64,000 nt of DNA from Candidatus Hydrogenedentota bacterium (GTDB lineage Bacteria; Hydrogenedentota; Hydrogenedentia; Hydrogenedentales; SLHB01). A model generated the notes under the pieces. It made no database searches, had not been told where the DNA came from, and saw only the letters and a program-made list of their open reading frames with translations. Where the stretch lies: positions 41,000 through 104,999 of the forward strand of contig JABWCD010000001.1 of the NCBI GenBank assembly GCA_013359265.1. The letters run 5' to 3'. A program made the position numbers and the translations under genes. Position 1 is the first letter of the stretch. Each line of letters begins with the position of its first letter. Shown in pieces: positions 2,253 through 45,313 of the stretch.

Positions 2253-2286
2253 TTCGTGTTCTCTCTAGCAGTTGCGGATCCGTGCG

Positions 2287-8955: not shown

Positions 8956-8979
8956 CCGATACAAGACGGGAGTTATGGA

Positions 8980-16753: not shown

Positions 16754-19186
16754 TCAGTCGACATACACGAACTCGTTCAGGCTCAGGATTACCTGGGCGA
16801 AGTCGACGAGAGCGGATTGGACGACGTCCTTGTCCTTTAGCGCGTAGTAGTTTGTCTTGGTTTCGTCGGCTTCCTGCTTGATGTGTCGCTGCACCTGCTT
16901 TTCGAGAAAACCGAGGGAGAGCGCCAGTTCGTGATCGGTTGGCGGGCGGTTGAGTGCAAACGCGAATGCGCGGCGGACCCAGCCTTCGCGGTTATCGCCG
17001 GCTTCTGCGCGCAGGCGATCGGCAAAGAATCTGGCCTGATCGCTGCTGAACGCGCTGTTCATCATCGAGAGCGATTGCGTGGGCGTGACGGTTGCGAGGC
17101 GGCGTCCGCAACTGACGACGGTATCCGGCGCGTCGAAGGATTCGATCATCGGCATGCGCGCGGAACGGCGTACGAAGATGTAGATGCTGCGCCGCCACGT
17201 GTCCGGGCCATCTTTCGCGTCGAGCGGCCACTTGGGCGTAGAGCCGGTGGCCACGGCGTCGGGCGGCATGAACGGAAACACGCCCGGCCCGTACATGCGC
17301 GGATTGAGGCAATTCGTAATCGCGAGGGTCGCGTCCCGAATGATTTCCGCTTCGAGGCGTTTGGGGTTTTGCCGCCACAGCAGCCGATTGTCCGGATCGA
17401 TTGCGGCGGCCGTCTCGTCATATTCGGAGGACTGTTGATACACGGCGCTCATGAGGATGAGTTTGTGAATGTGTTTCAGGCTCCACCCGTTCTGCACCAA
17501 TTCCGCCGCGAGCCAATCGAGTAGTTCCGGGTGCGAGGGCCGGTCGCCCTGGCGGCCAAAGTCGTTCGGCGTGCGCACAATGCCGTGGCCAAAATAGTGA
17601 TTCCATACCCTGTTCACGATCACGCGTGCGGTCAGGCGGCCCGCACCGCGGTCGACATCTGTCAGCCATTCGGCGAGCGCCGCGCGGCGAAAGGTGGTTT
17701 TCGCATCGGCGGTGCGCAGTGTCGCGGGCGCAAATCGATCATCTTCCGAACCCGGCAGGACCGAGAGGAACCCCAGCGCCACCTTCTCCTGTTTCGCATC
17801 CGGATTGCCGCGCGCGAGGAAGTAGCTGTCCGCAGGCTCCGGTTTCGCGTCGGTAAGCGCGAGGGCAAGCGGCGGCGAGACCGGCTTTTCGATCTCGATA
17901 GCGGCAATCGATGCGAGCGCGGCATCGGCCTTTGCGATGGACTCGGCGTCGAGCTGTGTGCGGATTTCCTCGTCCGGGACTTTTAACGCTTCCGCGTGTT
18001 TCGCGAGGAGTTTCTTTTGGCTTTCGTTCGTGTCGTCCTTCGCCAGTTTCAATAGCGACTTCTCGTCGTCGGTGGCCCGGAGGGCGTCGATCCTTGCGAT
18101 GCGCAGTTGGTCGCGGACCGGCGAATAGATTGCCTGAAGCGCGGCATGCGCCTCCGCGTTCCTCCCCTCCCACTCCGCCACCTTCACGCGGTACGCATCC
18201 GCCTCCGCACGCGGCGCCATCAACGCTTCGTAGCGTTTCGTCGAGGTGAACGCAGAGAGCATGCGGTAGTAGTCGTGCGAGGAGATCGGATCGTACTTGT
18301 GATCGTGGCAGCGGGCGCAGGCGACGGTCATACCGAGGAACGCGACGCTCGTAGTCGAGAGCATGTCGTCCCATTCGTCGTACTTGTTCAGTTCGAGTTC
18401 CTGGTTCGAAACCGTGGGGCCGCTCGTGCAGAACCCGGTGGCCGCAAGCGCGAGCGGATTCTCCGGCGCGCACTCGTCGCCGGCGAGTTGCCACTTAACG
18501 AAGGTGTCGAAGGGCAGGTCGTCGTTGAAGGCACGGATGACGAAATCGCGGTAGTGGTAGGCATTGGGCCGTTCGATATCGAACTCATACCCGTCGCTGT
18601 CGGCGTAGCGGGCGACGTCAAGCCAGTGGCGTCCCCAGCGTTCGCCGAAGTGCGGGCTGGCGAGCAAGTGGTCCACCAACTTTTCGTAGGCCTCTGGCGA
18701 CGGATCTCGCTCGAATGCTTCGATTTCCTCCGGTGACGGTGGGAGGCCGATGAGATCGTAATAGAGACGGCGAACGAGTTTGCCTGGCGAGACCTGTGGC
18801 GATGGGGCGATGCCTTTCGCTTCGAGCGCCGCGCCGATGAATGTGTCGATCAGCGTCGTTGACCAAGAGGAATTGCGCATGGCCGGTGGATCGACTCGTT
18901 TCAGCGGCTGGAACGACCAGAACGCGCGGTCCTCATCGGTCACTTTCCGATGCGGGATTTTGGGATTCTTGGCCGGCGAGACGGCTTTATCAATCGAATC
19001 GAGGCGTCGAAGCAGCGACTCGCGCTGCGCCTGCACTTCGGTTACGGACGCCCGCAGCCTCTCAAGCTGCGCCGAGGGGTCCTCCGCGGCGGAAATCGGG
19101 TAGGTGAGCGTTAGAACGGCGACCGCCAGCGGTGCAACGAGGCACCGGCGCGATCGTCCCCCAAACCCTGTAACCAAGCCAGCCAT
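16754..19186 (-). CDS. DUF1549/DUF1553 (PSD1) domain protein with signal peptide
   Basis: DUF1549 motif SPHFGERWGRHWLDVARYADSDGYE, DUF1553 motif CARCHDHKYDP; signal-like start MAGLVTGF...LAVAVLTL (track ORF extends further upstream to 19399). Confidence 0.85.
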   Translation of the reverse strand: MAGLVTGFGGRSRRCLVAPLAVAVLTLTYPISAAEDPSAQLERLRASVTEVQAQRESLLRRLDSIDKAVSPAKNPKIPHRKVTDEDRAFWSFQPLKRVDPPAMRNSSWSTTLIDTFIGAALEAKGIAPSPQVSPGKLVRRLYYDLIGLPPSPEEIEAFERDPSPEAYEKLVDHLLASPHFGERWGRHWLDVARYADSDGYEFDIERPNAYHYRDFVIRAFNDDLPFDTFVKWQLAGDECAPENPLALAATGFCTSGPTVSNQELELNKYDEWDDMLSTTSVAFLGMTVACARCHDHKYDPISSHDYYRMLSAFTSTKRYEALMAPRAEADAYRVKVAEWEGRNAEAHAALQAIYSPVRDQLRIARIDALRATDDEKSLLKLAKDDTNESQKKLLAKHAEALKVPDEEIRTQLDAESIAKADAALASIAAIEIEKPVSPPLALALTDAKPEPADSYFLARGNPDAKQEKVALGFLSVLPGSEDDRFAPATLRTADAKTTFRRAALAEWLTDVDRGAGRLTARVIVNRVWNHYFGHGIVRTPNDFGRQGDRPSHPELLDWLAAELVQNGWSLKHIHKLILMSAVYQQSSEYDETAAAIDPDNRLLWRQNPKRLEAEIIRDATLAITNCLNPRMYGPGVFPFMPPDAVATGSTPKWPLDAKDGPDTWRRSIYIFVRRSARMPMIESFDAPDTVVSCGRRLATVTPTQSLSMMNSAFSSDQARFFADRLRAEAGDNREGWVRRAFAFALNRPPTDHELALSLGFLEKQVQRHIKQEADETKTNYYALKDKDVVQSALVDFAQVILSLNEFVYVD

Positions 19187-19303
19187 GGGACTAGAGTAAA
19201 CATGTAGACACGATGGCGCAACTGCGCGTTGTTTCAGGGGTTGCGGGCAGATACCATATGGGCTGCACGACTCCATTGGCGCCTGCGGGTGAAGGACGAC
19301 TCG

Positions 19304-19555
19304 ATGAGCAGCAAATCTTCGGGGGAGAAATCGGCGAATCCGGACAATCCGTACAACATCGATTTTGCGCGGGAGCGCCGGTTGAAAAAGACGTTTCAAC
19401 TGCTTATCGGCGGCGCGTTTGTCGTCGCGCTTATCCTTCTGGTCGTCGCATATGCGATGGATACACTACTCCGAGAGAACGTGGACGGCGGCGCTCCGGT
19501 AACCCCATACAGCACACCCGCGCAGGCGACCGATCGGCAGGTTGCGCCAAAGTAA
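19304..19555 (+). CDS. hypothetical small membrane protein
   Basis: Single TM helix LLIGGAFVVALILLVVAYA; start chosen at MSSKSS (track ORF begins 19229). Confidence 0.3.
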   Translation: MSSKSSGEKSANPDNPYNIDFARERRLKKTFQLLIGGAFVVALILLVVAYAMDTLLRENVDGGAPVTPYSTPAQATDRQVAPK

Positions 19556-29989: not shown

Positions 29990-30409
29990 ATGAAAGCCAC
30001 GCGCATCCTCGAAACCTGCCTTTACGTCAACGATCTCGACGCGGCCGAGCGGTTTTACCGCGACGTGATGGGGTTGGACTTCTACGCGAAGCAGGAAGGG
30101 CGGCACGTCTTCTTCCGATGCGGGACAACGATGTTTTTGTTGTTCGATCCGGAGGGGACGAGCGACCCGACGCAGCCGCTTGGTGGGCATGGGTGCCGGG
30201 GGCCGGGGCATGCCGCGTTTGAGATTGGCGACGACGAAGTGAACGCGTGGCGGGATTACCTGACGTCGTGCGGTGTGCCCATCGATTCGGAGATAGACTG
30301 GCCGAGCGGCGGCCATTCGCTGTATTTCCGCGATCCGGCAGGGAACATTCTGGAGGTCGCTACGCGATCGACGTGGGACTGGCCGGAGAAAGAGCGCTGT
30401 AGCGAATAG
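29990..30409 (+). CDS. VOC family (glyoxalase/bleomycin-resistance/dioxygenase fold) protein
   Basis: About 140 aa, paired beta-alpha-beta-beta-beta modules with His/Glu metal ligands (HAAFEI, EVATRS). Confidence 0.65.
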   Translation: MKATRILETCLYVNDLDAAERFYRDVMGLDFYAKQEGRHVFFRCGTTMFLLFDPEGTSDPTQPLGGHGCRGPGHAAFEIGDDEVNAWRDYLTSCGVPIDSEIDWPSGGHSLYFRDPAGNILEVATRSTWDWPEKERCSE

Positions 30410-30440
30410 CAAAATGGGGAAAAAGCAACACGTTTGTGGC

Positions 30441-30468
30441 GGCTTGGTCGGAGCCTCGCCCCACCCAG
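30441..30468. repeat. repeat family B single copy
   Basis: GGCGGCTTGGTCGGAGCCTCGCCCCACCC between convergent VOC and PPTase genes. Confidence 0.6.
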
Positions 30469-30482
30469 TGTAGCGGCTCTAT

Positions 30483-31220
30483 TCACGGTTGGTTCGTGGT
30501 ACACCAATCGAATGTGGAAAGTACTGGTGACGCCAACTCGACGGTGATCGCCGCGGCGTAGTCATCGCCGACGTCGAGGTCGCGGACACACCACGCGTCC
30601 GTTTCGCCCGGTCTCGCATGCACAAGGACGCGGAGCCTGTCGTTATCGTCTTCCGCGATCGAAAACGCGTTCAGCGGATAGGACAACCCTTCGCCATGCG
30701 CCTTGATGAACGACTCTTTCCGCGTCCATTGTTGAGTAAATGCGCGGACGCGATCGGCGTCGCGCACGGCGCGAAGGAGCGCCGATTCGGATTCCGTGAA
30801 AAACCGGTCCGCGATGCGCTGGCCGTCGAAGTCGGGGCGGCACCGCTCGACGTCGATGCCGATGCGCGCGGCGCGCGCAAACGCGATCAGTACGATGTCG
30901 CCGGAGTGCGCGAGGTTGAAGCGCAAATCGCTTCCGTGCGCCGCTGCGAGGTCCGGCTTGCCATGCGATGTGTATGTGAGCTGGACGCCGGCCGGCGGGA
31001 TGTTCAGGTACATGCCGAGCAGTTCTCTCAGGACACCGCGCGCGGCGACGTAGTTGTCGCGGCCCCGCTCGAAATGGAAACGCGCGGCGCGGTCGCGTTC
31101 GTCGGGCGCGAGCGAATTAATGAAACGGGTAATCGCGCTGTGTGACGCATCAGACGATGCTTTCCACACGTGCACGTCATCCGATTCGAGCTGGGGATCG
31201 GCTGGTGGCGACTTCCACAT
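30483..31220 (-). CDS. Sfp-type 4-prime-phosphopantetheinyl transferase
   Basis: Motifs FNLAHSGD, GIDVE, WTRKESFIKAHG. Confidence 0.8.
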   Translation of the reverse strand: MWKSPPADPQLESDDVHVWKASSDASHSAITRFINSLAPDERDRAARFHFERGRDNYVAARGVLRELLGMYLNIPPAGVQLTYTSHGKPDLAAAHGSDLRFNLAHSGDIVLIAFARAARIGIDVERCRPDFDGQRIADRFFTESESALLRAVRDADRVRAFTQQWTRKESFIKAHGEGLSYPLNAFSIAEDDNDRLRVLVHARPGETDAWCVRDLDVGDDYAAAITVELASPVLSTFDWCTTNQP

Positions 31221-31380
31221 GGAATGAAGCTACCGCATCGCGCGCGAAAATGCGAGTGTCAAACGCCAGCTTTGCTGGGAGCCAAAACGTCGGCGCTGGT
31301 CCTGTCACCCCCTTTCGCCGCGCACCACATTGTCCCGATAGAGGAATCCGGCCTTTCGGCGTTGTCAATCGAAAATCGCG

Positions 31381-32277
31381 CTAACCGCCTGCGAGGCGCG
31401 CTTCGGCAAGCTCGATAGCGTCGCGCAGGCTCTCCCCCACGACTTCGATCGCGGGTTGCAACATCAGCGTAACGTGGTTGCCGGGGGTGTCGTAGACTTT
31501 GAGGCCCTCGAGCGCGACGCCGCCCCAGCCCATTGCGGGGTCAGGATCGTGCAGTCCGAGCGAGGCGCTGTCACTGGCTTTGATGAGCGCGCCGTGGGCG
31601 TGAATGGGTTGTGGTTTGTACTTCCGGAGAACGGTCATGTTTGCGACGAGCACGCGCAGGCTGCGGAAGAGGCCCGGCGGCTGCAAGTCGAGGTGCGGGC
31701 GACGCTCAATCACGTCGGCGATTGGCGCACGCCCGAGCAGACGCATACATACGCGCATAAACGGCGCGAGCACGGAGCCGTGCTTAATGCGGTCGCCAAA
31801 CATGACGTAGAACCCGTCGCGGAAGTACGGGCCGGTGTGGCTGAACACGGCGATGATTATTTTCGGTATTACGTAGAGCCGCTGGATCGGCGTCAGGTTT
31901 GCGATCGGCGATTCGCGGCCCGGCCCATTCACGCGCATATCGAGCACGATGAGTTCGACTCTATCGCCGGTCTTCTCGAGTTGATGTGCCATCTCGAGCG
32001 CAACCATCGCACCGAAGGACCAGCCGCCGATAATGTACGGACCTGCGGGCTGGTGCGCCTTCAGTGCGGCAACATCGGCGCGCGCAAGGTCTTCGACCGT
32101 GCGAAACACGGGCGTTTCCGGGTTCAGGCTGGGGTCTTGGATCGCGTAAAACGGCCGGTCTTCGTCCCAATACTCGAGCACATGGTAGCAGGGGAAGACG
32201 ACGCCGCTGGCGGGCGCGCACAGGTAGAACGGGCGCTTTGAACCGGTGGGGTGCAGAGCAAACAGATGCGGGACCAT
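31381..32277 (-). CDS. type II thioesterase (alpha/beta hydrolase, editing TE)
   Basis: GGWSFGAMVA nucleophile elbow, 298 aa, 12 nt downstream of PKS stop. Confidence 0.8.
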   Translation of the reverse strand: MVPHLFALHPTGSKRPFYLCAPASGVVFPCYHVLEYWDEDRPFYAIQDPSLNPETPVFRTVEDLARADVAALKAHQPAGPYIIGGWSFGAMVALEMAHQLEKTGDRVELIVLDMRVNGPGRESPIANLTPIQRLYVIPKIIIAVFSHTGPYFRDGFYVMFGDRIKHGSVLAPFMRVCMRLLGRAPIADVIERRPHLDLQPPGLFRSLRVLVANMTVLRKYKPQPIHAHGALIKASDSASLGLHDPDPAMGWGGVALEGLKVYDTPGNHVTLMLQPAIEVVGESLRDAIELAEARLAGG

Positions 32278-32289
32278 GCGGAGGCGGGT

Positions 32290-35200
32290 CTACGCTTCTT
32301 CGTCCGGCGCGGGGCCGCCGCGCTCCGCGATCGCTTTGTCCATTCCTTCGCGCAGCACTTTCGCAACGTGCTCGACATATGGCGGGTTCATCAGCACGGC
32401 ATGGTTGCCCGGAACTTCGACAATATCGATTCCGCCTTCGGCCAGGTCGCCCCAGCCAAGCGTCCAGTCTTCGTGCAACTTGTGCATGATGGACTGGTCT
32501 TCGGCGCGCAGGAGCGTGATGCGGCCACGATAGGGCTGCAGCTTGTACGCAAGCAAAGCCTTCAAATTGGCCTTCAGCACGCGGACGGTCCGCCGCGTCT
32601 TCGGTTGCTTTATCAATAGCACGCGATTGTTGCGCGTGGCAATCTGCGCCATGTCCGCCTTTTTCACGAGCGTGTGGCGAATGACATCCGCGAACGCGAA
32701 CGAGAAGTATTCCCACAACGACGGCTCGTCGGCGGATTTTTTCCGGTTCTTCAGTTTTGACGGAAGGATGATGTAGATGAAATCGCGCGCGTAGGGCGGC
32801 CAGTGGCCCACGACTTTCACCGACATTTTCAACTGGCCCCACAGGTATCTCAGCCATTCGCCCGCGGTGCGCGCGCGATGCTTCTCGATGCGCGCCTCGG
32901 TGTCGATGATGCCGAGGAAGGCCACGTCTTCGCCTGCGGCGATGAGCTGCTGCGCCGTCTCGAATGCGACGGCGCCACCGAATGACCAGCCGCCGATGTA
33001 GTACGGGCCACTGGGCTGGATGCTGCGGATCGCCTTTACCTGTTCGGCGCAGAGCAACTCCATCGTGGGCAGCGGATCGATCGCGGGGTTGAGCGCGGGG
33101 TCCTGCAAGCCGTAGATGGGCTGGTTTTCGCCCATGTAGCGCGGCAGGTGGAAGTACATGAACGTCATGCCGCCTGCCGGCGCGCAACAGAAGAACGGAG
33201 GGCGGTCGCCCTTGGGCTGAATCGCAACGACGTGCGGCACCGTCGCTGACAGACCGACCTCGGCATTCACGGAACCGGGCACTTCGACGGGCAGCGGGTA
33301 CTCGAGTTCCGCGGCGACGCGGCGCGCGAACCCGCCGAGTTTGCGCGGCAGCCGCGTGCGTTTCCATACGTCGCCCAGCGATGCGTCAATGCCATCGTGT
33401 TTCTTAAAGTTCGGATCGCCGATGTGCATGGACGTCGCGTGGACGCCATCAGTCATGCGGTCGCCTTCGTAGGGCGTAAGCACCGCCGGATCAAAGGGAA
33501 TGCCGAGAAACGCGCACATCGCCTTCATCGATTCCTCGGGCTTCGCGACGATGTCCTCGTACTTCACAACGTATTTGCGATCGGAATCGATATTCTCCAG
33601 GAAGTCGGAGATGTTTGCGTTATGGGCGGTCCACACGTCCTCTCCCGCGGCCATGGGGTCGGCCTCACCGTCCATCATGAGGCGATCGAAGCGGTTGCGG
33701 ATGAAGGACTCGATCACCGAATACGGATGGCGCACGAGATGGATGTATTTCGCGCCGTCGAAGATGCGTTCGGCGTGATCGAGAATGTCGGCGCCCTCGC
33801 CGTACGAGGGCGATTTATCCACGAGCAGCCTGGGCGCGACGAGTTCCTGCATGTCGGCGTAGACCTTCTCGACGGGCACATCGTTTCTAACGTACTCGTC
33901 GACGTGCGCCTTAGCCTGTTCGGCGGTGAATCCGCGCAGCTCCATCCAAGCGCGCGGCAGGCCTTCCCCAAGGAACGAGGTGCCAAGGCCGTTATGCCAT
34001 TCGCGCATCGTGTTGTACTGGAGCAGGTGAAACTCCGGCGGGCTGAACAATTGCGGGTGCCCGGCGAGCATGACGCGAAGCAGTGTCGAGCCCGAACGCG
34101 GCGCGGACAGGAGAAACACCGCCGGCTTGTTCTTGACTGCCGGGCCAATGCGCCGCAGGCGCGGACGCAACCGCGCCGCTGTGGACCGCGCCGTAGTCTG
34201 CGCGGGCTGCGCGTCGGCACGGTGATCAAGCTGCGCGACTTCGTGAACGAGGTAAGGCGCGAGATCGGCGATTGTTGGCCGATCGAAGAGCTCCTTCGGG
34301 AACAGGCGCACGCCGAGATCGCGTTCGATGCTGTTCACGATTTCCATCATCATGATCGAGTCCACGCCCAACTCGCCGAAGTTGCGGTCGATCGCGATAG
34401 AGTCTTCGTTCCGACTGAGCACCTGCGCGACCTGGCGACGAAGATACGCCTCGATCGCTTCGACGTCATTTGCCGCGGGTTTTGCCGGCGCCTTCGGCGC
34501 CGCGGCAGCGGGCGATTTCGCGTGACCGTTTATCAGTTCGGAGAACATCGGCGATTCCGCAAACATTGGAATGCGGTTTCCAATCCGGTCCCAGTCGGCG
34601 TGCAACACGCCGATGTGCGACTCCCCGCTGGACATAAGCGAATCGAGCACGGCGATGCCTTCGCTAGGCTGCAGGCTGTCAATGCCTTGCGCGGCCCAGC
34701 GGTGGACCAATTGTGTGCGCGCGGCCATGCCCGTTTCGGCCCACGGGCCCCAATTGATGCACAGGGCCGGCTGACCGTGGGCCCGGCGATGGTGCGCCAA
34801 CGCATCCATGAAAGCGTTGCCCGCCGCGTAGTTTGCCTGGCCGGGCGCGCCCATGACGGCGGCGACCGACGAGAACAGCACGAAGAAATCGAGCCGGTTC
34901 GCCGCGCCGTTTCCGTTGGCGTCGAAGTGGCGATGCAGCAGCATCGTGCCGTCCACCTTGGGCCGCATCACGGCCGTGAGCGAATCCATGCTCAGATTGG
35001 TGACGGCATGATCGTCAATCACGCCCGCCGCGTGCACGACTCCGCGAATCGGCGGGAGGCCGCTCCGATCATACGCGGCGAGGAAATCGCGGACCTGCAT
35101 TTCGTCCGTCACATCGACGGACGCGCAGCGCACCTCCACACCGTCAGCCTCGAGGGCCACGACGGTGTCGATCCGCTCGCGTATCGCGGTGTCCGATACC

Positions 35201-38200
35201 GTGTTCCATTCTTCGCGCGGAGGCAATGGCGTACGGCCAAACAGCACGACGTGCTTCGCGCCGCGCCCGCCCAGCCACTTTGCGACGTGCAGGCCGAGGC
35301 CGCCAAGACCACCGGTAACGACGTAGGTCGCATCGGGCCGGCATTGAATCGCAGCGCCCTTCCCATTACCCGTTGTGCCATTATTCTTCGCGAGCCGGGC
35401 GGCAAATCGCCGGCCCGAGCGGAAACCGATCTGGTCCTCGCCATCGGGTGCGTCAAGCTCGCGCAATAGCAAATCGGCGGACGAATCGCCGGCATGCGGG
35501 TCGAGATCGACGAGTCCGCCCCACAGGCGCGCGTGTTCGAGCGCGACACTGCGGCCGAATCCCCACAACGGGGCTTGCGCCGCCGCGACACCGCCGTTCA
35601 ACGCCTCGATGCTTTGCGCGCCGCGCGTGACGCACCAGAGCAGACGTTGCGAACGGCTCGCGAAATGCCCATCACGCTCTCCGGACTCGGAAATCGATTG
35701 GACGAGGTGGAGCATTGCGCCGCACCCAAGCGCATGCGCATGGTGCAACGATTGCAGCGTTGCGTCGTCAATATTGGGCGCATCGAGCGACCAGAGGTGA
35801 ACGATGCGATCGCATGTACGGCCAATTTCGTTCCAAAGCCGATCAAAATCGGCGCCATTCATTGGATCGAGGGAAATGTCGTCCGCGGCGGCGGCCTCAT
35901 AGGAGTCCGCTGCCCGCACAATAATCGCGGACCCACCGCGCGCACGCACGCGTTGCGCCAACGCGTCCCCCGCTCCGGACTTATCGGCAAGAATCAACCA
36001 ACGCGAGGGCATTGCGCCGGGCTGGGTGGCGTTGTTCTTCTGAATCCACTTGACCTGATACAGCCAATCGCTTACGCGACTCGCACTGACTGTTTGCGCA
36101 GAAGCCGCCGTTGGCGCGGGCGCTTTGCGTGTCGTCGCCGAATTATCGAGCCAGTGGCGCTGCTTCGCGAACGGATAGGTCGGCAGTGAAATGCGCGAAC
36201 GCACGTACGGTGCGTCGAATCCTTTCCAATCGATCTTCGCCCCGGCGACATACAGCGACTGCAGCGAACGCAGGATGACTTGCCAGTCGTCTTGTCCCTT
36301 CGCAAGCGACGGAAGCCAAACCGCGGCATCCTTCGCCACGCAGCGGGCGCCCATGCCGGACAACGTGGCCTGCGGGCCCACTTCGAGAAACGTGTTGAAT
36401 CCGAGTCCTGTAATTGACTTTATGCCGTCCAGGAACTGCACGGCTTCGCGCAGGTGATTGCGCCAATAGTTCGCAGTGAATGCGTTCGCGTCGTCCGGCA
36501 CGCCGCCGTAGAGATTCGAGACGACAGGTATCTGCGGCGATTTGAACGCGATCGTGGAAGCGAATTGCTCGAACGCGTCCAACATCGGGTCCATAAGTGG
36601 AGAATGAAACGCGTGCGAGACGTTCAGTTTGATCGATTTCACGCCGCGCTCTTTGAATTCGGCAAGCAGCGCATCCACTTCTTGTTCCGGACCGGAGACA
36701 ACTGTATTTGCGGGGCCGTTGATGCCCGCGATCGCGACTACGCCAGTGCGCGAGACAAGTCCCGCCGCGACTGTATCGCGATCGGTGAGGACCGCGGCCA
36801 TCGTGCCGCCGGGTGGCATCGACCCCATGAGACGGGCCCGCTCGGCGATAAGGTTGAGGCCATCCTCGAACGAGAACACGCCTGCTACGCACGCCGCGAC
36901 GTATTCGCCGACGCTGTGCCCCATCACGATCGAGGGCGTGATGCCCCACGACTTCCACAGTCCCGCGAGCGCGTATTCAATCGCAAACAGCGCGGGCTGT
37001 GTGTATGCGGTTTCGTCAAGCGGCGTCGCAGAGCCTTCTTCGGGATATATTGCCTTCAAGAGAGGGACTTCGAGCCTCGGGCGCAACACTTCGTCGCACT
37101 CGTTCATGACACGGCGAAACACGGGACTGGCTTCGTAGAGTCCGCGGCCCATTTGGGGGAACTGCGCGCCCTGCCCAGTGAAGAGGAACGCGAGTCGCGT
37201 TTCCGTATTTGGTTTCGCCTCGCCAACGACGGCGGACTTAGCAGAGCCATTCTCGGCGAATTCGCGTAAGGTGTTTACAGCTTCGCCGGTAGTACCTGCA
37301 ATGATTGCAACTCGTTTTGCGAGGTGTGCGCGGCCCGTATTCGCCGAATAGCAGAAATCGGCCAAAGGCGCCGAATCGATCGCATCCGCATACCGTCCCG
37401 CGAGCGTCGTCAATGCGTCGTCGGTCTGCGCGGACAGCGCGAGTGCGTGCAGTGGGCGCTCAGCCTGCGACTCGGGCTTTGGCGCGGTTGCAGGCGGCGC
37501 TTCGAGAACGACGTGCGCATTCGCTCCGCCGAAACCGAACGAACTCACACCGGCAACGCGCTTGCGCTTCGACGTTTCCCACTGCTCCGTCTGCGTCGCG
37601 ATGCGCAGGGGCGTGCCTTCTATTTCGATAAGGGGGTTGATCTGCTTTAGGTGGAGGTGGGCCGGAATCGTACCACGTTCCAACACCAAGGCCGTTTTGA
37701 TTAGACCGGCAATACCGGCGGCCGCCTCGAGATGTCCAATGTTCGTTTTGACCGAGCCAAGCACGCAAGGCTCGTTTGCCGCGCGTTCGGGCAGCAGGAC
37801 CGCTTTCAGCGCATCCACCTCGATTGGGTCACCCAGCGATGTGCCGGTGCCGTGCGCCTCGACATAGCCGACGTCGCGATGCGAGACGCCCGCATCGGCG
37901 AGTGCGCGCCGGATAACGTCCTGTTGCGCGAGTTGGTTTGGCGCCGTAATTCCATTGCTGCGGCCATCGTGATTCACCGCGGAGCCGCGAATGACCGCAT
38001 GGATCGCGTCGCCATCGGCAATCGCCTCGGACAACCGTTTTAGCACGACGACGCCGCAGCCTTCGCCGCGCACATAACCGTCGGCGGATGCGTCGAACGT
38101 CTTGCACAGTCCATCCGGCGCCATCATGCGCGCATGCGAAAACACCATATTCACTTCGGGCGAGAGAATCACGTTGACGCCGCCTGCGAGTGCGAGCGAG

Positions 38201-39072
38201 CTTTCACCCTTACGCAGGCTTGTCACGGCTTGATGCACCGCGACGAGGGACGACGAGCACGCGGTATCGACGGCGATGCTCGGCCCGCGCAAGTCAAGGA
38301 AATAGGAAATGCGGTTTGGCGCGAGGCTGTGCGCGTTGCCGGTGCCTGCGTACGCATCGACGCGGTTGGCGTCGCCGAGTTGCAGACTCGAGTAGTCACT
38401 CGAACTGATGCCGACGAATACGCCTGTTTGCGATCCCGCGAGCGACGTTGGTGGCACGCCCGCGTCCTCGAGCGCTTCCCACGCGGTCTCCATGAGCAGG
38501 CGCTGCTGCGGGTCCATGCGCGCGGCCTCGCGCGGCGATATGCCGAAGAAATCGGCGTCGAACGTATCGACACGATCGAGGAACCCGCCGCGGCGCGTGT
38601 ACATTTTCCCCGGCGCGCCGGGGTTTGCATCGAAATAGTCGTCGATCTTCCAGCGGTCAGCGGGCACTTCCGAGATTGCGTCTGTGCCATTCGTCAACAA
38701 GGACCAGAACGCGTTTACTGAAGCGGCGCCGGGCGCACGGATTCCCATGCCGATAATGGCGACGGGTTCATTCGACACGCCAACGGCCGGAGGTGCGTCA
38801 AGAGCAGCCGCCTGATTCTCGCCCGCAAGATGCGCGGCAAGTTGCGCAATGGACGGATACTCCCACAGGAGCGTCGGCGACAGCTTCTTGCCGAGCCAAT
38901 CTTCGAGATCGCCGGAAATCGTCACGGCGTCGCGCGACGCCATCCCGAGATCGTCGAACGCTGCCGACGGTTTGATCGCACTGCGGTCGACCCCCAACTC
39001 TGCGGCGACGTGCTCGATGAGCCACGCCTGTATAGCTTCCTTACTCGGCAATCGCATCTTCCTGTCGCACAC
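32290..39072 (-). CDS. type I polyketide synthase, CurM/Ols-type olefin-forming module: ACP-KS-AT-KR-ACP-sulfotransferase-thioesterase
   Basis: 2260 aa. ACP0 (LGMAS, aa 43-47); KS DTACSSS (C271), HGTGT (407-411), NIGH; AT GHSVGE (S720) with HAFH malonyl motif; KR GGLGGLG (1254-1260), VIDD, YAAGN; ACP GVDSIM (S1572); ST PAPS loop PRSGST (1658-1663) and RHPYSVIES; TE GGWSFGG (S2030) and GNHAV; no DH/ER. Confidence 0.9.
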   Translation of the reverse strand: MCDRKMRLPSKEAIQAWLIEHVAAELGVDRSAIKPSAAFDDLGMASRDAVTISGDLEDWLGKKLSPTLLWEYPSIAQLAAHLAGENQAAALDAPPAVGVSNEPVAIIGMGIRAPGAASVNAFWSLLTNGTDAISEVPADRWKIDDYFDANPGAPGKMYTRRGGFLDRVDTFDADFFGISPREAARMDPQQRLLMETAWEALEDAGVPPTSLAGSQTGVFVGISSSDYSSLQLGDANRVDAYAGTGNAHSLAPNRISYFLDLRGPSIAVDTACSSSLVAVHQAVTSLRKGESSLALAGGVNVILSPEVNMVFSHARMMAPDGLCKTFDASADGYVRGEGCGVVVLKRLSEAIADGDAIHAVIRGSAVNHDGRSNGITAPNQLAQQDVIRRALADAGVSHRDVGYVEAHGTGTSLGDPIEVDALKAVLLPERAANEPCVLGSVKTNIGHLEAAAGIAGLIKTALVLERGTIPAHLHLKQINPLIEIEGTPLRIATQTEQWETSKRKRVAGVSSFGFGGANAHVVLEAPPATAPKPESQAERPLHALALSAQTDDALTTLAGRYADAIDSAPLADFCYSANTGRAHLAKRVAIIAGTTGEAVNTLREFAENGSAKSAVVGEAKPNTETRLAFLFTGQGAQFPQMGRGLYEASPVFRRVMNECDEVLRPRLEVPLLKAIYPEEGSATPLDETAYTQPALFAIEYALAGLWKSWGITPSIVMGHSVGEYVAACVAGVFSFEDGLNLIAERARLMGSMPPGGTMAAVLTDRDTVAAGLVSRTGVVAIAGINGPANTVVSGPEQEVDALLAEFKERGVKSIKLNVSHAFHSPLMDPMLDAFEQFASTIAFKSPQIPVVSNLYGGVPDDANAFTANYWRNHLREAVQFLDGIKSITGLGFNTFLEVGPQATLSGMGARCVAKDAAVWLPSLAKGQDDWQVILRSLQSLYVAGAKIDWKGFDAPYVRSRISLPTYPFAKQRHWLDNSATTRKAPAPTAASAQTVSASRVSDWLYQVKWIQKNNATQPGAMPSRWLILADKSGAGDALAQRVRARGGSAIIVRAADSYEAAAADDISLDPMNGADFDRLWNEIGRTCDRIVHLWSLDAPNIDDATLQSLHHAHALGCGAMLHLVQSISESGERDGHFASRSQRLLWCVTRGAQSIEALNGGVAAAQAPLWGFGRSVALEHARLWGGLVDLDPHAGDSSADLLLRELDAPDGEDQIGFRSGRRFAARLAKNNGTTGNGKGAAIQCRPDATYVVTGGLGGLGLHVAKWLGGRGAKHVVLFGRTPLPPREEWNTVSDTAIRERIDTVVALEADGVEVRCASVDVTDEMQVRDFLAAYDRSGLPPIRGVVHAAGVIDDHAVTNLSMDSLTAVMRPKVDGTMLLHRHFDANGNGAANRLDFFVLFSSVAAVMGAPGQANYAAGNAFMDALAHHRRAHGQPALCINWGPWAETGMAARTQLVHRWAAQGIDSLQPSEGIAVLDSLMSSGESHIGVLHADWDRIGNRIPMFAESPMFSELINGHAKSPAAAAPKAPAKPAANDVEAIEAYLRRQVAQVLSRNEDSIAIDRNFGELGVDSIMMMEIVNSIERDLGVRLFPKELFDRPTIADLAPYLVHEVAQLDHRADAQPAQTTARSTAARLRPRLRRIGPAVKNKPAVFLLSAPRSGSTLLRVMLAGHPQLFSPPEFHLLQYNTMREWHNGLGTSFLGEGLPRAWMELRGFTAEQAKAHVDEYVRNDVPVEKVYADMQELVAPRLLVDKSPSYGEGADILDHAERIFDGAKYIHLVRHPYSVIESFIRNRFDRLMMDGEADPMAAGEDVWTAHNANISDFLENIDSDRKYVVKYEDIVAKPEESMKAMCAFLGIPFDPAVLTPYEGDRMTDGVHATSMHIGDPNFKKHDGIDASLGDVWKRTRLPRKLGGFARRVAAELEYPLPVEVPGSVNAEVGLSATVPHVVAIQPKGDRPPFFCCAPAGGMTFMYFHLPRYMGENQPIYGLQDPALNPAIDPLPTMELLCAEQVKAIRSIQPSGPYYIGGWSFGGAVAFETAQQLIAAGEDVAFLGIIDTEARIEKHRARTAGEWLRYLWGQLKMSVKVVGHWPPYARDFIYIILPSKLKNRKKSADEPSLWEYFSFAFADVIRHTLVKKADMAQIATRNNRVLLIKQPKTRRTVRVLKANLKALLAYKLQPYRGRITLLRAEDQSIMHKLHEDWTLGWGDLAEGGIDIVEVPGNHAVLMNPPYVEHVAKVLREGMDKAIAERGGPAPDEEA

Positions 39073-40875
39073 TTACCCGATGGCGACGACGTCCAGCGTG
39101 CCGTCGAGGAAGCCCCGCTTGCACGCCTGGCGCTGCAGTTTGCCGCTGCTCGTCTTGGTAATCGAGCGCGGCGTTATCACACACACTTTGTGCACGCGCA
39201 AGTCGTGGTCGCGCGCGACAGCCTTTCGCACGGCGGCGAACACCGGCGCGGCGCCCTCGGCGTCCACAATGCCGCCAGCCTCCGCGACAACGACGACGTT
39301 TTCGGCGCCATTTTCGTCCACCGGGAACGAAATGACACAACCGGGACGAATCGCCGCGTGCGCTTTTTCGACGGTCTCCTCGATGTCCTGCGGGTAGTGG
39401 TTCGCACCATCCACAATAATGACGTCCTTAATTCGGCCGGTAACGTAAACGTTGCCATTGTGGATGAAGCCAAGATCGCCCGTGCGCAGGAACGGTCCTT
39501 CACTCGTATCGGAAAGGCGCGCGTTGAACACGCGTTCGGTTTCACGTTCGTTGTTATAGTAGCCCTTCGCGACGGTAGGCCCACTGACCCAAATTTCGCC
39601 GACGGTACCGGGCTTGCACTGAATCCCGGTCTCCGAATCAACGATAATCGTGCGCGTCTGCAGGTGCGACGCGCCGCTGGAAACCAACGTCCGCGATCCG
39701 GGCGCGCCGCGCTCCATGACTACGACACGGTGCTTGATCAACTCGGCTGAGGAAACGGTCAGCACATCGGTCTCGAGGTCCGGCCGCGTTCCGCTGACTT
39801 TCAGCGTCGCCTCGGCAAGACCGTAGCCGGATTTGAAGATGCTCCACGAGACGCCGCATTCCCGGAAAGCCTCGACGAACCGTTCCAGCGTTTCGATGCG
39901 GATCGGTTCCGAACCGTTCGCGGCCGCCACCCAGCATGACAGATCGAGCGACGCCTTCTGCTCCGGCGTGACCTTTCGCGCGCACAAGTCGTACGCGAAG
40001 TTGGGCCCCACGCTCCACGTTGCGCGGTATTTCGATATCGCCTGCAGCCACCGCGCGGGATGCTGAAGGAAATCGAGCGGCGACATGACATAGCAGGGCA
40101 GCTTGCGGTAGATCGGAAGCAACAACCCAAAGATCAGACCCATGTCGTGGTACGCAGGCAGCCAGGTGACTTGGCTCGCTTCCGGTTGTTCGGAGTGCCA
40201 GTAGTAGGACATGTCCCACAGGTTGTAGAGCAAGTTTCCGTGCGTGACCATGACGCCCTTCGGGTCCGACGTCGAGCCTGAAGTGTACTGAAGAAACGCC
40301 ACCGCATCAGTGGTCGAGACGGGACCATGCCAATTCGCGGCTTCGGAATCTTGCACGGTATCCACGGCGATCCAATCGAACTTCGCGAAATCCGCATCCT
40401 GCTGCGCCATCATTTCGACGAGCGGCAGCACCATCGACGTGGTTAGCGCGACGTGCGTGTTCGCATCGTTTGCAATCACTTTGAGGCGCGGCAAACTGCG
40501 ATTCAACCGGCTTGGGTCCGGTGGATACACCGGAACGGCAACGACCCCCGCGTAGAGACAGCCGAGAAAAGTCGCGATGTAATCGAGCCCCGGCGGAAAA
40601 ATCAGTAACGCGCGATCGCCGGGAGAACAATGATTCCGCAAGTGCGCGGCGATTGCGCGCGCACGAATATCGAGTTCCTCGTAGGTCAGTCGCGCGCCTT
40701 CGGTCTCACCGTCGTCCAGGTATTGGTAGGCCATACAGGAGGGGTCGCTCTCAGCGCGCGCTCGGACAAACTCGTCGACCGTCTTGGCATGTATGGGAAT
40801 GCCGGCCGCCAACGCGCGCCGTTCCACATCGTCACTCTGCGCGGCCCATGCGGCGACCGCGGATGATTTCGTCAT
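39073..40875 (-). CDS. fatty acyl-AMP ligase (FAAL)
   Basis: 600 aa adenylate-forming enzyme, FAAL-like N-term and AMP-binding core (YTSGSTSDPKGV), stop abuts PKS start. Confidence 0.85.
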   Translation of the reverse strand: MTKSSAVAAWAAQSDDVERRALAAGIPIHAKTVDEFVRARAESDPSCMAYQYLDDGETEGARLTYEELDIRARAIAAHLRNHCSPGDRALLIFPPGLDYIATFLGCLYAGVVAVPVYPPDPSRLNRSLPRLKVIANDANTHVALTTSMVLPLVEMMAQQDADFAKFDWIAVDTVQDSEAANWHGPVSTTDAVAFLQYTSGSTSDPKGVMVTHGNLLYNLWDMSYYWHSEQPEASQVTWLPAYHDMGLIFGLLLPIYRKLPCYVMSPLDFLQHPARWLQAISKYRATWSVGPNFAYDLCARKVTPEQKASLDLSCWVAAANGSEPIRIETLERFVEAFRECGVSWSIFKSGYGLAEATLKVSGTRPDLETDVLTVSSAELIKHRVVVMERGAPGSRTLVSSGASHLQTRTIIVDSETGIQCKPGTVGEIWVSGPTVAKGYYNNERETERVFNARLSDTSEGPFLRTGDLGFIHNGNVYVTGRIKDVIIVDGANHYPQDIEETVEKAHAAIRPGCVISFPVDENGAENVVVVAEAGGIVDAEGAAPVFAAVRKAVARDHDLRVHKVCVITPRSITKTSSGKLQRQACKRGFLDGTLDVVAIG

Positions 40876-41121
40876 CGCAGAATTCTCCAGACCCTAATAT
40901 GGAATCGCCCGGTGCGGAACATGCGCTCGGCAAACCCCACACGCAGACTTTGACCACGCGACAATGAGGGCGGTTGCACGGCGTCCACACGTCCTGTGGG
41001 CGCGCCGCTTCGACCCTGCCACCCCTAACCTCGCACCGCGTATGCGGTTACGTAATACGTTGACAACAGCTTACCACGTTCCTCTTAGGAACGCAAAACC
41101 CGGATGTGCATGTTCCCGTAA

Positions 41122-41937
41122 TTGACGGGATTCTGGAGCGACTGGAGGTGTGACGTGCGGCTTCCCATTTACCAGATAGACGCATTTACCGGACAGGTAT
41201 TCGGCGGAAACCCGGCGGCGGTCTGCCCACTGGAGCGGTGGCTTCCCGCAGAGCAAATGCAGGCCATCGCCGCGGAGAACAACCTGGCGGAGACCGCCTA
41301 CTTCGTCAAGGAAGGCGAGGCATTCAGGCTTCGATGGTTTACTCCGACGGTCGAAGTAGACTTGTGTGGACACGCCACGCTCGCAGCAGCGTATGTGCTT
41401 TTCGAGTGCCTTGGCTACTCCGGCGACAGAGTAACGTTTCAATCGCAGAGCGGCCCACTTACCGTTGTTCAACGAGGCGCGTTGCTGGAAATGGATTTCC
41501 CCAGCCGGCCGCCGGAACAGTGTGCCGTTCACCCCGAACTCGTCCCCGCGCTGGGTAAGGACCCAGTATCGGTTACTGCGTCGCGCGATTACCTTTGCGT
41601 GTTCGAGTCCGCGGAGGAGGTGCTTGCCCTCAACCCGGACTTCACCCGGTTGAAACAGATCGATCGCTTCGCCGTCATCGCCACCGCGCCGGGAACCGAT
41701 TGCGATTTCGTCTCCCGTTTCTTTGCCCCAGCACAAGGCGTCGACGAAGACCCCGTAACCGGATCGGCGCACTGCACGCTCGTACCGTACTGGTCAAAGC
41801 GCCTCGGCAAGCGATCGCTTCATGCGCGGCAAGTTTCCCGCCGGGGCGGCGAACTCTTCTGCGAGGACAGGGATGATCGCGTGGCGATTGCGGGAAACGC
41901 AGTCCTGTATATGCGGGGTGAGATTGAGATCGCGTAG
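41122..41937 (+). CDS. PhzF family isomerase
   Basis: LPIYQIDAFT N-terminal signature, 2 DAP-epimerase-like halves; possible GTG start near 41158. Confidence 0.8.
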   Translation: MTGFWSDWRCDVRLPIYQIDAFTGQVFGGNPAAVCPLERWLPAEQMQAIAAENNLAETAYFVKEGEAFRLRWFTPTVEVDLCGHATLAAAYVLFECLGYSGDRVTFQSQSGPLTVVQRGALLEMDFPSRPPEQCAVHPELVPALGKDPVSVTASRDYLCVFESAEEVLALNPDFTRLKQIDRFAVIATAPGTDCDFVSRFFAPAQGVDEDPVTGSAHCTLVPYWSKRLGKRSLHARQVSRRGGELFCEDRDDRVAIAGNAVLYMRGEIEIA

Positions 41938-41964: not shown

Positions 41965-42630
41965 TTATTCGGCTGGACCACACACCGCCGGGATGCCGAT
42001 ATCGGCGACAACCACCCTGCCGAGGTAAGTCCGCGCGTTCGGATTGGTGAAGCCGCACTTTTGAAACTGAAACGTGACCGTTACGTCCGCTCGGATGCAA
42101 TTGCCACAGACCTCGCCCGTATCGGCGTTTAGGCCGGAGGGTAAATCGACCGCGATCGTGCGCACGCCGGGCCACGCATCGATGGCGGCGCGGATGGGGC
42201 CTCTGACCTCACCCTGAGTTCCAGTGCCAAGCAGCGCGTCCACGAGCACCGCGCAGTCGGAGAGTTCGCGAACGGCGTCTGCTGCTTGGTCCTCGGTTTG
42301 CGCGACGCGAATCGCCCCCCCGAGGTTTTGGTAAACGCGCAGGTACGCCGCCGCGTCGCCTACGATCACCGCGGGATCGGCTATTAGAACGACCCGCGTT
42401 TCGAGGCCGGCCAGGAGCGCAAACCGCGCGACCACGAATCCATCGCCGCCGTTGTTGCCCTTGCCGCAGACCACGCCGACCGGGCCACGTTCAATCTCGC
42501 GGAACACCGCGGCGCCCGCGTTATTCATCAGCACTGCACCGGGAATGCCAATCTCTTCTATGCACCTGCGATCAATTTCGCGCATTTCCGCCGCGGTTAC
42601 ATAGCGGACGACTCTTTCGTCCACATTCAT
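41965..42630 (-). CDS. NAD(P)H-hydrate epimerase (YjeF N-terminal domain only)
   Basis: GKGNNGGDG motif; 221 aa; 4-nt overlap with upstream gene. Confidence 0.8.
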   Translation of the reverse strand: MNVDERVVRYVTAAEMREIDRRCIEEIGIPGAVLMNNAGAAVFREIERGPVGVVCGKGNNGGDGFVVARFALLAGLETRVVLIADPAVIVGDAAAYLRVYQNLGGAIRVAQTEDQAADAVRELSDCAVLVDALLGTGTQGEVRGPIRAAIDAWPGVRTIAVDLPSGLNADTGEVCGNCIRADVTVTFQFQKCGFTNPNARTYLGRVVVADIGIPAVCGPAE

Positions 42631-43906: not shown

Positions 43907-44089
43907 CTACTTGCCGCAGGTGGGCACCGGGTCCATTTTCCCGGTGCGTTCGCACAGGCTTACCCATTCCTCATCGGACATGGTGTCGTAGGCATCGGAT
44001 TCCAGCGCGAGCCAGCACAATTCCTGCTCGCGAAGCATCGCGTTTGCGTCGTGCCCGCTCTTCTCGGGCTGTGAGGGTTGCTTGACCAT
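43907..44089 (-). CDS. possible small hypothetical protein in divergent intergenic region
   Basis: 60-aa ORF with protein-like composition (MVKQPSQPEK...); no domain. Confidence 0.2.
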   Translation of the reverse strand: MVKQPSQPEKSGHDANAMLREQELCWLALESDAYDTMSDEEWVSLCERTGKMDPVPTCGK

Positions 44090-44281
44090 AGAACCGATAC
44101 TATAGCAAAAAAGGAAGCGCGGAGCAACGGTCGCGTTGGACGAACAAGTTTCCGTACATTTTCGCACTCGCCTCACTTTCGGGCCTGCCGAACGTGGCGC
44201 GTGACTTTCCGTGCCCACTCCTGTATCCTACGCCCGCACTGTAACGATACGACCAAAATACCCGCTCGGACACCACAATAT

Positions 44282-45313
44282 ATGACCGAATCCATCCCCC
44301 CCCAAGACCCCGAAAGTTCACTCCGTAGCCAATGGAAAGCGCTGGTCGCACGTTACCACCGGCCAAGCCACGGCAGAAGCATCTGGCAACTCGCCAACAC
44401 CATCGTTCCGTATGCACTGGGCCTTGGCCTTATGTATTGGAGCCTGAACATCTCGTACCTCCTGACGCTCGTCTTGGCCGTACCGACGGCTGGGCTGCTT
44501 GTGCGCATTTTCATAATTTCGCACGACTGCGGGCACGGCGCGTACTTCCGGTCGCGCCGCGCAAACGATATCGTGGGCGGTATTACGTCGTTTCTGTGCC
44601 TCACCCCCTACCACTATTGGAAGCACGAGCACGCCGTTCACCATGCCTGTGCGGGCAATCTGGATGAGCGAGGCCGGGGCGACATTTGGACGATGACGGT
44701 GAAGGAATACGCCGCGGCATCCCGCATCAAGCGGCTCGCATACCGCCTGTACCGCAATCCCATCATTTTGTTTGGAATCGGCGCGTTCTCGGTATTCATG
44801 TTCGAGTACCGGGTGCCGCCCAAGAACGGGACCGCCCGCGACAGAAGAAGCGTTTGGCGCACGAACGCGGGCTTGGCCGCCGTCCTCGTGCTGGCGCATT
44901 TCACGATCGGCCTGAAGGCGCTGGCGCTGATACACATGCCGGTGCTCTTACTGGCGGCGGGCGCCGGCGCATGGCTGTTCTATGTGCAGCACCAATTCGA
45001 GGACGTTTACTGGGCGCGGGACAACGAGTGGGACTACGTCGCGGCGTGCATGCAGGGCAGTTCCTACTACAGGCTGCCGCGCGTGTTGCAGTGGTTTACG
45101 GGGAACATCGGCTTTCACCACATCCATCATTTAAGCGCGAAGATTCCAAACTACTTCCTTGAGAAATGCCACAAAGAAAACCCGATTATGCAGCGGGTGC
45201 ACCAATTGTCGTTGTGGTCGAGCCTGCGGTGCATGCGCTTTCGCCTCTGGGACGAGGAAAAGAGACAACTCATCACCTTCGCACAGTACCGGAGGTATGA
45301 CCGCGCCGCCTGA
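44282..45313 (+). CDS. membrane fatty acid desaturase
   Basis: Three His boxes HDCGH, HAVHH, HHIHH with TM segments; ATG at 44282. Confidence 0.85.
   Translation: MTESIPPQDPESSLRSQWKALVARYHRPSHGRSIWQLANTIVPYALGLGLMYWSLNISYLLTLVLAVPTAGLLVRIFIISHDCGHGAYFRSRRANDIVGGITSFLCLTPYHYWKHEHAVHHACAGNLDERGRGDIWTMTVKEYAAASRIKRLAYRLYRNPIILFGIGAFSVFMFEYRVPPKNGTARDRRSVWRTNAGLAAVLVLAHFTIGLKALALIHMPVLLLAAGAGAWLFYVQHQFEDVYWARDNEWDYVAACMQGSSYYRLPRVLQWFTGNIGFHHIHHLSAKIPNYFLEKCHKENPIMQRVHQLSLWSSLRCMRFRLWDEEKRQLITFAQYRRYDRAA

Follow-up and report, generated by a model that had tools for sequence, protein, structure and literature searches.

We analyzed a 64,000-nucleotide stretch of contig JABWCD010000001.1 from a Candidatus Hydrogenedentota bacterium (hereafter the window), which carries a polyketide synthase (PKS) gene cluster that resembles the cyanobacterial olefin synthase Ols but ends in a thioesterase (TE) of another family. 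According to the list of open reading frames (ORFs), positions 30483-40875 are filled exactly by four co-directional ORFs on the minus strand. In their direction of reading, they encode a putative stand-alone fatty acyl-AMP ligase (FAAL) of 600 amino acids (39073..40875; Pfam AMP-binding, 1e-62, and AMP-dom_DIP2-like), a single-module type I PKS of 2260 amino acids (32290..39072) with the order acyl carrier protein (ACP), ketosynthase (KS), acyltransferase (AT), ketoreductase (KR), ACP, sulfotransferase (ST), and TE, a stand-alone TE of 298 amino acids (31381..32277; Pfam Thioesterase), and an Sfp/HetI-type phosphopantetheinyl transferase (PPTase) of 245 amino acids (30483..31220; Pfam ACPS and AASDHPPT_N). 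The FAAL and PKS ORFs abut directly (0-nt gap), 12 nt separate the PKS from the stand-alone TE, and 160 nt separate the latter from the PPTase. The original prediction had placed a four-gene cluster here; all catalytic motifs of these genes are intact, and the E-values lie far beyond chance. A scan of positions 30000-41300 returned no promoter-like sites and 16 terminator-like sites, no clear excess over the 11.2 ± 3.7 found in shuffled controls.

Pfam domain calling on the PKS agreed with the predicted order ACP-KS-AT-KR-ACP-ST-TE, returning PP-binding, the N- and C-terminal ketoacyl-synt domains (2e-101 and 5e-44), Acyl_transf_1 (6e-59), KR (7e-62), a second PP-binding, Sulfotransfer_3 (4e-31), and Thioesterase PF00975 (3.5e-25), all encoded on the minus strand. 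The N-terminal loading ACP (residues ~10-88, 38809..39045) has Ser46 in an LGMAS motif that begins at residue 42. The KS and KS-AT linker (residues 102-576, 37345..38769) carry Cys272 in DTACSS, as well as EAHGTG and NIGH. The AT (residues 629-944, 36241..37188) has GHSVG and HAFH, the latter a malonyl signature (PMC7327777). The KR with its structural subdomain (residues 1001-1446, 34735..36072), recognized by Pfam and by the NCBIfam KR prefix domain, has GGLGGLG, the catalytic YAAGN, and an IDD motif within HAAGVIDD that identifies it as B-type, as predicted; it shares this LDD-type motif with KRs located upstream of CurM-type ST-TEs. A second ACP (residues 1543-1607, 34252..34446; Ser1572 in LGVDS), the ST (residues 1650-1933, 33274..34125), and a PF00975 TE (residues 1947-2260, 32293..33234; Ser2030-Asp2057-His2224) complete the protein. 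When the AT-KR segment was searched in isolation, no dehydratase (DH) or enoylreductase (ER) domain was found at E ≤ 10, the only matches being the end of the AT, a weak KR-prefix-like match, and the start of the KR. This upholds the claim that the β-hydroxyl is kept. Two features of Ols are present: FAAL-to-ACP loading ahead of the KS, and a KS-AT-KR-ACP extension module that leaves a β-hydroxyl.

The best NCBIfam models for the FAAL were PRK05850 (fatty-acid--AMP ligase, 456 bits) and FadD32 (434 bits), both below the curated cut-offs, and its C-terminus carries the DIP2-like domain PF23024 (Pfam). NUM52063.1, a protein identical to it, is named 'fatty acyl-AMP ligase' at NCBI. The abutting genes and the Ser46-bearing ACP fit the earlier proposal that a separate FAAL gene feeds the N-terminal ACP. 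The prediction of an Sfp PPTase was also sound, since the protein combines PF01648 (1.8e-20) with PF22624, the AASDHPPT N-terminal domain (2.9e-12), over 245 amino acids. Its best NCBIfam match was HetI (6e-49), below the equivalog cut-off.

The ST was compared with characterized enzymes by phmmer, using the C-terminal 646 residues of the PKS. It aligned end to end with the ST of CurM (4GBM, 1.2e-92) and with that of Synechococcus Ols (4GOX, 6.4e-90). Both predicted loops for binding 3'-phosphoadenosine 5'-phosphosulfate (PAPS), PRSGST (1662-1667) and RHPYSVIES (1785-1793), were found, and PPEFHLL (Glu/His) and VDKSP (Lys) were likewise intact. In the alignment, Glu60, His62, and Lys133 of the CurM ST correspond to the Glu and His of PPE(L/F)HLL and to the Lys of VDKSP; within CurM, Arg205 also has an assigned role. 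The PKS ST is ~50-57% identical to cyanobacterial Ols/CurM-type STs. Among 120 database relatives, the STs with the His motif were 47-57% identical to it, and most of these were fused to a CurM-type hydrolase; the PKS ST groups with these His-containing, CurM-like STs. As judged from sequence, it is genuinely a sulfotransferase of the CurM/Ols clade, and a third feature of Ols, an 'activating' PAPS-dependent ST after the ACP, is present at this level. In a separate clade of STs, 39-46% identical to the PKS ST, the motif reads PPELELL and not PPELHLL, which puts Glu at the position of CurM His62. These proteins (the P0008-P0053 group of database relatives, e.g., P0013, P0036, and P0073) always have the architecture A-T-ST-TE, with nonribosomal peptide synthetase (NRPS) adenylation (A) and thiolation (T) domains before the ST and a PF00975 TE after it. 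They come from metagenome-assembled genomes (MAGs) labeled Pyrinomonadaceae, Blastocatellia, Thermoanaerobaculia, and Planctomycetota, and could sulfonate a carrier-bound hydroxy-amino acid.

The fused TE departs from the prediction of a CurM/Ols-type ST-TE didomain, of which only the ST half fits. In a search of the PDB, it had no match to the CurM TE (3QIT) at E ≤ 10; its matches were NRPS TEs (7CRN, AB3403/4ZXH, EntF, and NocB), the Pks13 TE, and the TE of fatty acid synthase (FAS). As a control, a search of that database with the Moorea ST-hydrolase P0039 gave 3QIT (3e-88), followed by epoxide hydrolases and haloalkane dehalogenases. Direct comparisons of the fused TE with the CurM-type hydrolase of P0039 by BLAST and phmmer were not significant. 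The top 50 Foldseek neighbors of an AlphaFold2 model of the fused TE (pLDDT 82) were all canonical PKS, NRPS, and FAS TEs, the oocydin branching TE 7R0X among them. The Pfam labels of the domain after the ST point the same way, being PF00561, PF12697, and PF12146 in CurM/Ols-type proteins and PF00975 in the PKS analyzed here and a minority of others. An NJ tree gives a hint, no more, that the pairing with PF00975 is basal. A decarboxylating TE of the CurM TE subfamily, as found in Ols, is not present. The CurM TE is said to have a Ser-His-Glu triad and a sulfate-binding Arg. Hydrolysis and the coupled decarboxylation and desulfation are ascribed to the Ols TE (PMC3903477, PMC11730487). Because the fused TE shows no detectable homology to the CurM TE in sequence, TE-driven decarboxylative elimination is not transferable to it by homology, only by an analogy between the pathways as a whole.

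When few sequences were aligned, four residues of the fused TE seemed specific to ST-linked TEs: Arg2161 (lid motif TRR), Asp1991 (LQDP), Glu2059, and Arg2096. Such a sulfate-specific signature was rejected on comparison of 146 subfamily representatives, in which Arg2161, Asp1991, and Arg2096 were common in NRPS TEs without an ST in the same protein. Glu2059 alone was still enriched in ST-linked TEs (11/16).

The stand-alone TE had been predicted to be a type II TE, and this assignment failed. Its alignment with the fused TE (310 columns, covering its whole length and the lid) shows 34% identity (E = 8e-56), and its triad is intact (GWSFGA with Ser, the Asp of VLDM, and PGNH). Its best PDB matches were the type I domains of AB3403 (4ZXH, 4e-16) and NocB (9e-15); the type II structures matched weakly, with E-values of 0.08-0.09 for RedJ (3QMV/3QMW) and 0.48 for SrfTEII (2K2Q/2RON). 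In a neighbor-joining (NJ) tree of the TEs, the stand-alone TEs of the window and of two related loci (L001 and L003, described below), together with P0319, formed a clade of their own beside P0216/P0238, within the fused-TE subfamily. Two origins were considered and rejected. A recent in-genome copy of the fused TE conflicts with the tree, which places free TEs apart from fused TEs. A relic of an NRPS condensation (C)-A-T-TE protein does not fit either, as the free TE lies apart from the NRPS TE of locus L010 in the tree and is 29% identical to that of locus L016. Orthologues were found in L001 and L003 and are absent from L008, L011, L013, L014, and L017. This restriction to one sub-lineage makes the stand-alone TE an accessory, not a core part.

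The cluster had been described as lying in a planctomycete-like context. The window does contain a DUF1501 gene (14588-16024), a DUF1549/DUF1553 gene (16754-19399), and a DUF1559 prepilin-like gene (59924-61048), and the DUF1501, DUF1553, and DUF1559 families are usually taken as planctomycete markers. The host, however, is Candidatus Hydrogenedentota, where these families are also annotated: exact matches to window proteins are NUM52061.1, NUM52063.1, NUM52056.1, and NUM52045.1, all labeled Candidatus Hydrogenedentes/Hydrogenedentota bacterium. The presence of the DUF genes in a Hydrogenedentota genome makes them poor taxonomic markers on their own.

In a set of species-representative genomes, the closest loci were found in two Hydrogenedentota MAGs (L001 and L003). 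The window and both MAGs share the gene order YjeF_N, PhzF-like (reversed), FAAL, PKS, and TE, and L001 then continues as the window does, with PPTase, glyoxalase, HAD, PRT, and sigma-70 genes. The same neighborhood is seen in a third Hydrogenedentota genome, L013 (GCA_019695095.1), which is more divergent; its PKS carries an extra C-methyltransferase (cMT) domain, and a free TE is absent. YjeF_N lies beside the cluster in L001, L003, and L013, and PhzF in L001 and L003 only. In L001, the PPTase gene comes after the TE gene; L010 and L013 have it after the PKS gene, and L003 lacks it. In at least four genomes of Hydrogenedentota (window, L001, L003, and L013), the FAAL and PKS core thus has the same syntenic position. 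Among these loci, identities were 68-84% for the cluster proteins, 51% for the PPTase, and 66-89% for the flanking genes. Divergence like that of flanking housekeeping genes, together with conserved synteny, fits a vertically inherited lipid function, as for Ols in cyanobacteria.

Distribution of the architecture was analyzed by an exhaustive search with the TE domain, which returned 1690 cluster representatives at E ≤ 1e-30; the best 150 were inspected for an ST. Sixteen of these 150 also had an ST, and seven of the 16 were full-length ACP-KS-AT-KR-ACP-ST-TE proteins of 2176-2648 amino acids, one of them with a C-methyltransferase in addition. In an eighth protein, P0216, a methyltransferase is inserted and the KR is encoded by another gene upstream. 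A separate FAAL gene lay immediately upstream in every context examined (L010, L011/L012, L013, L014, L015, and L017). FAAL followed by ACP-KS-AT-(cMT)-KR-ACP-ST-TE(PF00975) is therefore a recurrent family, and the FAAL and PKS core recurs in at least five metagenomic contigs beyond the Hydrogenedentota loci. In L011/L012, L014, and L015, it forms a two-gene unit with no other biosynthetic gene adjacent, so that the PKS's own TE must finish the pathway there. L011 also carries a DUF1559 gene. The C-methyltransferase variants are at L013:10001-17947 (P0222) and L017:3353-10129 (P0216).

Some relatives were linked to NRPS modules. At L016:3640-15639, from the Hydrogenedentota genome GCA_016215105.1, genes for FAAL, ACP-KS-AT-KR, ACP-ST, and TubC_N-C-A-T-TE succeed one another, and the ST is not followed directly by a TE; its FAAL, KS, AT, KR, and ST are 45-68% identical to the window domains. 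This arrangement suggests sulfated or sulfate-activated N-acyl amino acids as the products of the L016 line. L010:8153-21947 encodes, after the FAAL, a complete ACP-KS-AT-KR-ACP-ST-TE PKS whose C-terminal tail is acidic, and then a TubC_N-C-A-T-TE NRPS and a PPTase. The two TEs of L010 are of the same subfamily, its NRPS TE clearly belonging with the fused TEs (LQDP, lid RR, 34-35% identity). In P0202 and P0265, the ST is fused straight to an NRPS module. L010 also has a pair of neighboring Rieske/FMO-like genes, with products 54-60% identical to the proteins encoded at 6795-8955 of the window.

Among the closest known systems is the Ols of Synechococcus/Picosynechococcus PCC 7002. Both have FAAL loading, a single KS-AT(malonyl)-KR(B-type)-ACP extension without DH or ER, a CurM/Ols-clade PAPS-dependent ST straight after the ACP, and a hydrolase at the end. 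That hydrolase is a PF00975 Ser-Asp-His TE here, whereas in Ols it is an Abhydrolase_1/6 hydrolase related to 3QIT; the system described here further differs in the extra stand-alone TE, the adjacent PPTase, and the Hydrogenedentota host. The split into FAAL and ACP-KS-AT-KR-ACP-ST-TE genes has been reported in cyanobacteria only from Cyanobacterium stanieri PCC 7202 (PMC11730487, PMC11837247), whose Ols has the same division. CurM of curacin A biosynthesis (ACP-ST-TE), with which the ST shares its PAPS loops and Glu/His/Lys, ends a PKS/NRPS of many modules and has its own TE subfamily, absent here. CurM-type ST-TE pairs also occur in Haliangium, the haliamide TE being 37% identical to the CurM TE. 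The FadD32-Pks13 system of mycolic acid synthesis likewise uses a stand-alone FAAL and an N-terminal ACP, in a PKS of order ACP-KS-AT-ACP-TE. The Pks13 TE has the same PF00975 fold and the same 27-residue spacing from Ser to Asp (Ser1533 and Asp1560 in Pks13). In contrast to Pks13, the PKS of the window has an added KR and ST, an AT with the malonyl HAFH and not of the long-chain carboxyacyl type, and a host that is not an actinobacterium. Pks13 was its second-best NCBIfam model, at 924 bits against an equivalog cut-off of 2100 for NF040607, so the protein falls outside that family. The lines of L016 and L010 have homologous FAAL, KS, AT, KR, and ST domains and PF00975 terminal TEs, and the window lacks their NRPS part. 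The swf PKS-ST family of sponge symbionts (PMC3908369) was set aside as unrelated, with the architecture KS-AT-DH-ER-KR-ACP plus R-ST.

With about even confidence, we read the cluster as a chromosomal operon that follows Ols logic to make a lipid from a fatty acid, in which a Cn+1 1-alkene would arise through a non-orthologous release enzyme. The FAAL would adenylate a free fatty acid (Cn) and load it onto the N-terminal ACP of the PKS, and the KS and malonyl-specific AT would extend the chain by two carbons. The B-type KR would then give a (3R)-3-hydroxyacyl-ACP, with no DH or ER step, and the ST would sulfonate the 3-hydroxyl with PAPS. The C-terminal Ser-Asp-His TE of PF00975 would hydrolyze the chain, and loss of CO2 and sulfate would leave the odd-chain Cn+1 1-alkene. 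The Sfp-type PPTase would prime both ACPs, and the stand-alone TE may be a lineage-specific accessory that edits or aids release. These steps differ in strength. The early steps, from loading through one malonyl extension and B-type reduction to 3-O-sulfonation, have strong support from homology and intact motifs. Hydrolytic release by the fused TE is a reasonable expectation from its intact triad. Decarboxylative elimination, the weak link of the pathway, is plausible but not assured, as it is argued by analogy with Ols.

The proposal of a terminal-alkene synthase is accordingly carried by the FAAL, the extension module, and the ST, and not by the releasing domain. Several observations weigh against alkene formation. 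By sequence comparison, the fused TE is from another α/β-hydrolase family than the CurM/Ols TE, and no sulfate-specific signature was detected in it, its lid Arg-Arg and LQDP being common in NRPS TEs without an ST in the same protein. The same ST clade also appears to feed an NRPS module in L016 and L010, so that sulfonation is probably not always tied to decarboxylative release. An acyl carboxyl that is held as an amide rules out decarboxylative elimination there, so in part of the family the sulfate would be retained, eliminated, or displaced. These NRPS-linked relatives lend more weight, at the window too, to the main alternative, possible but less likely, in which the TE hydrolyzes the sulfated chain or, like Pks13, passes it to an acceptor, giving a 3-sulfooxy fatty acid or ester with the sulfate as head group. 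A generic PF00975 TE that counts both hydrolyzing and acyl-transferring TEs (AB3403, FAS, and Pks13) among its nearest structural matches, and which has neither CurM-TE features nor an ST-specific residue signature, would suit such a role. L016 and L010 hand a sulfated chain to C-A-T-TE, which makes sulfate retention somewhere in the family probable, and ST homologues without a TE are expected to yield sulfated metabolites (PMC11730487). The FAAL-KS-AT-KR-ACP-ST-TE logic is nevertheless otherwise identical to that of Ols, and no conserved gene for export, for making an acceptor, or for tailoring lies beside the core. A point in favor of a sulfated lipid is that, in our judgment, monoesters of sulfate with secondary alkyl groups are rather stable in aqueous solution, so that their spontaneous fragmentation is not guaranteed; against it, we know of no 3-sulfooxy fatty acid lipid family.

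Three further explanations carry less weight. The ST could stand in for a DH, with sulfate eliminated without decarboxylation on the ACP or TE to give a 2- or 3-enoyl chain and hence an unsaturated fatty acid. The module does lack a DH, sulfate should be a good leaving group, and TE-fold domains with non-hydrolytic roles, such as 7R0X, are among the structural neighbors. We consider this role improbable, because the TE has the triad of a standard hydrolase and a DH domain would be a less wasteful solution; to our knowledge, it has no precedent. A slightly slimmer chance attaches to the cluster being a fragment of a larger hybrid line, whose sulfated chain would be received by a partner encoded elsewhere, an NRPS or some other, and whose stand-alone TE would be a remnant or partner. 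L010, with FAAL-PKS(ST-TE) followed by TubC_N-C-A-T-TE and a PPTase, and L016, with FAAL-PKS-ACP-ST followed by C-A-T-TE, provide models for such a line, and both end in PF00975 TEs, that of L010 clearly of the fused-TE subfamily. Domain scans nevertheless found no NRPS C or A domain anywhere in the 64-kb window, nor at the syntenic L001, L003, and L013, and the free TE has no special affinity to the NRPS TEs of L016 and L010 (29-34% identity). The original prediction taken literally, that is, a planctomycete CurM/Ols ST-TE with an orthologous decarboxylating TE and a type II TE, is highly improbable: domain order and ST identity agree with it, and the family of the fused TE, the type-I-like free TE, and the taxon refute it.

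Ols alkene synthesis has been treated as a cyanobacterial trait and ST-TE as one functional unit (PMC11730487, PMC11837247, PMC3903477; reviews and surveys to 2026). A search of the Hydrogenedentes literature found no relevant PKS, lipid, or hydrocarbon chemistry, and the window proteins are public under generic names only, such as 'alpha/beta fold hydrolase' (NCBI). The earlier suggestion of an unreported lineage for 1-alkene biosynthesis agrees with a searchable literature in which Ols is cyanobacterial only, and needs to be modified to Hydrogenedentota with a different TE. We tentatively propose that FAAL-PKS-ST lines with a canonical TE or NRPS end form an undescribed family, inherited vertically in Hydrogenedentota and present in unplaced contigs. 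The ST would then perhaps not be tied to a CurM-type hydrolase: an ordinary TE may suffice for alkene formation, or the products may be new 3-O-sulfated fatty-acyl lipids or lipoamino acids. The interest of the locus lies in this non-orthologous TE and in its conserved presence in an uncultured phylum. An ST paired with a non-homologous TE offers a test of whether the CurM-type TE catalyzes decarboxylative elimination or whether any hydrolysis of a β-sulfated thioester suffices. If a generic TE suffices, the CurM TE would be dispensable for the chemistry, and terminal-alkene engineering in PKSs would become simpler; if it fails, the loci would point to new sulfated lipids in widespread uncultured bacteria. 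If the alkene route is true, the C-methyltransferase variants would give α-methyl intermediates and hence 2-alkenes.

Genes around the cluster were also inspected. No cysC-, cysD-, or cysN-like genes for PAPS supply were found among the scanned window ORFs of at least 200 amino acids. A PhzF-like isomerase gene (41122-41937, plus strand), divergent from the FAAL gene, and a YjeF_N gene (41965-42630, minus strand) flank the cluster, neither with an evident functional link to it. A membrane fatty-acid desaturase (PF00487, 8e-29) is encoded at 44078-45313 on the plus strand, 3 kb upstream of the FAAL gene, with a beta-propeller gene and the YjeF_N and PhzF-like genes in between; a link of this desaturase to the substrate of the cluster is possible. 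Farther away, a phosphate-uptake operon (1566-6365, minus strand) encodes PhoU, two ABC ATPases, a PstS-like binding protein, and a permease of 611 amino acids in which PstC and PstA are probably fused. It is followed at 6795-10118 (plus strand) by genes for an FMO-like flavin monooxygenase, a Rieske [2Fe-2S] protein, and a TENA/PQQC-family protein in tandem.

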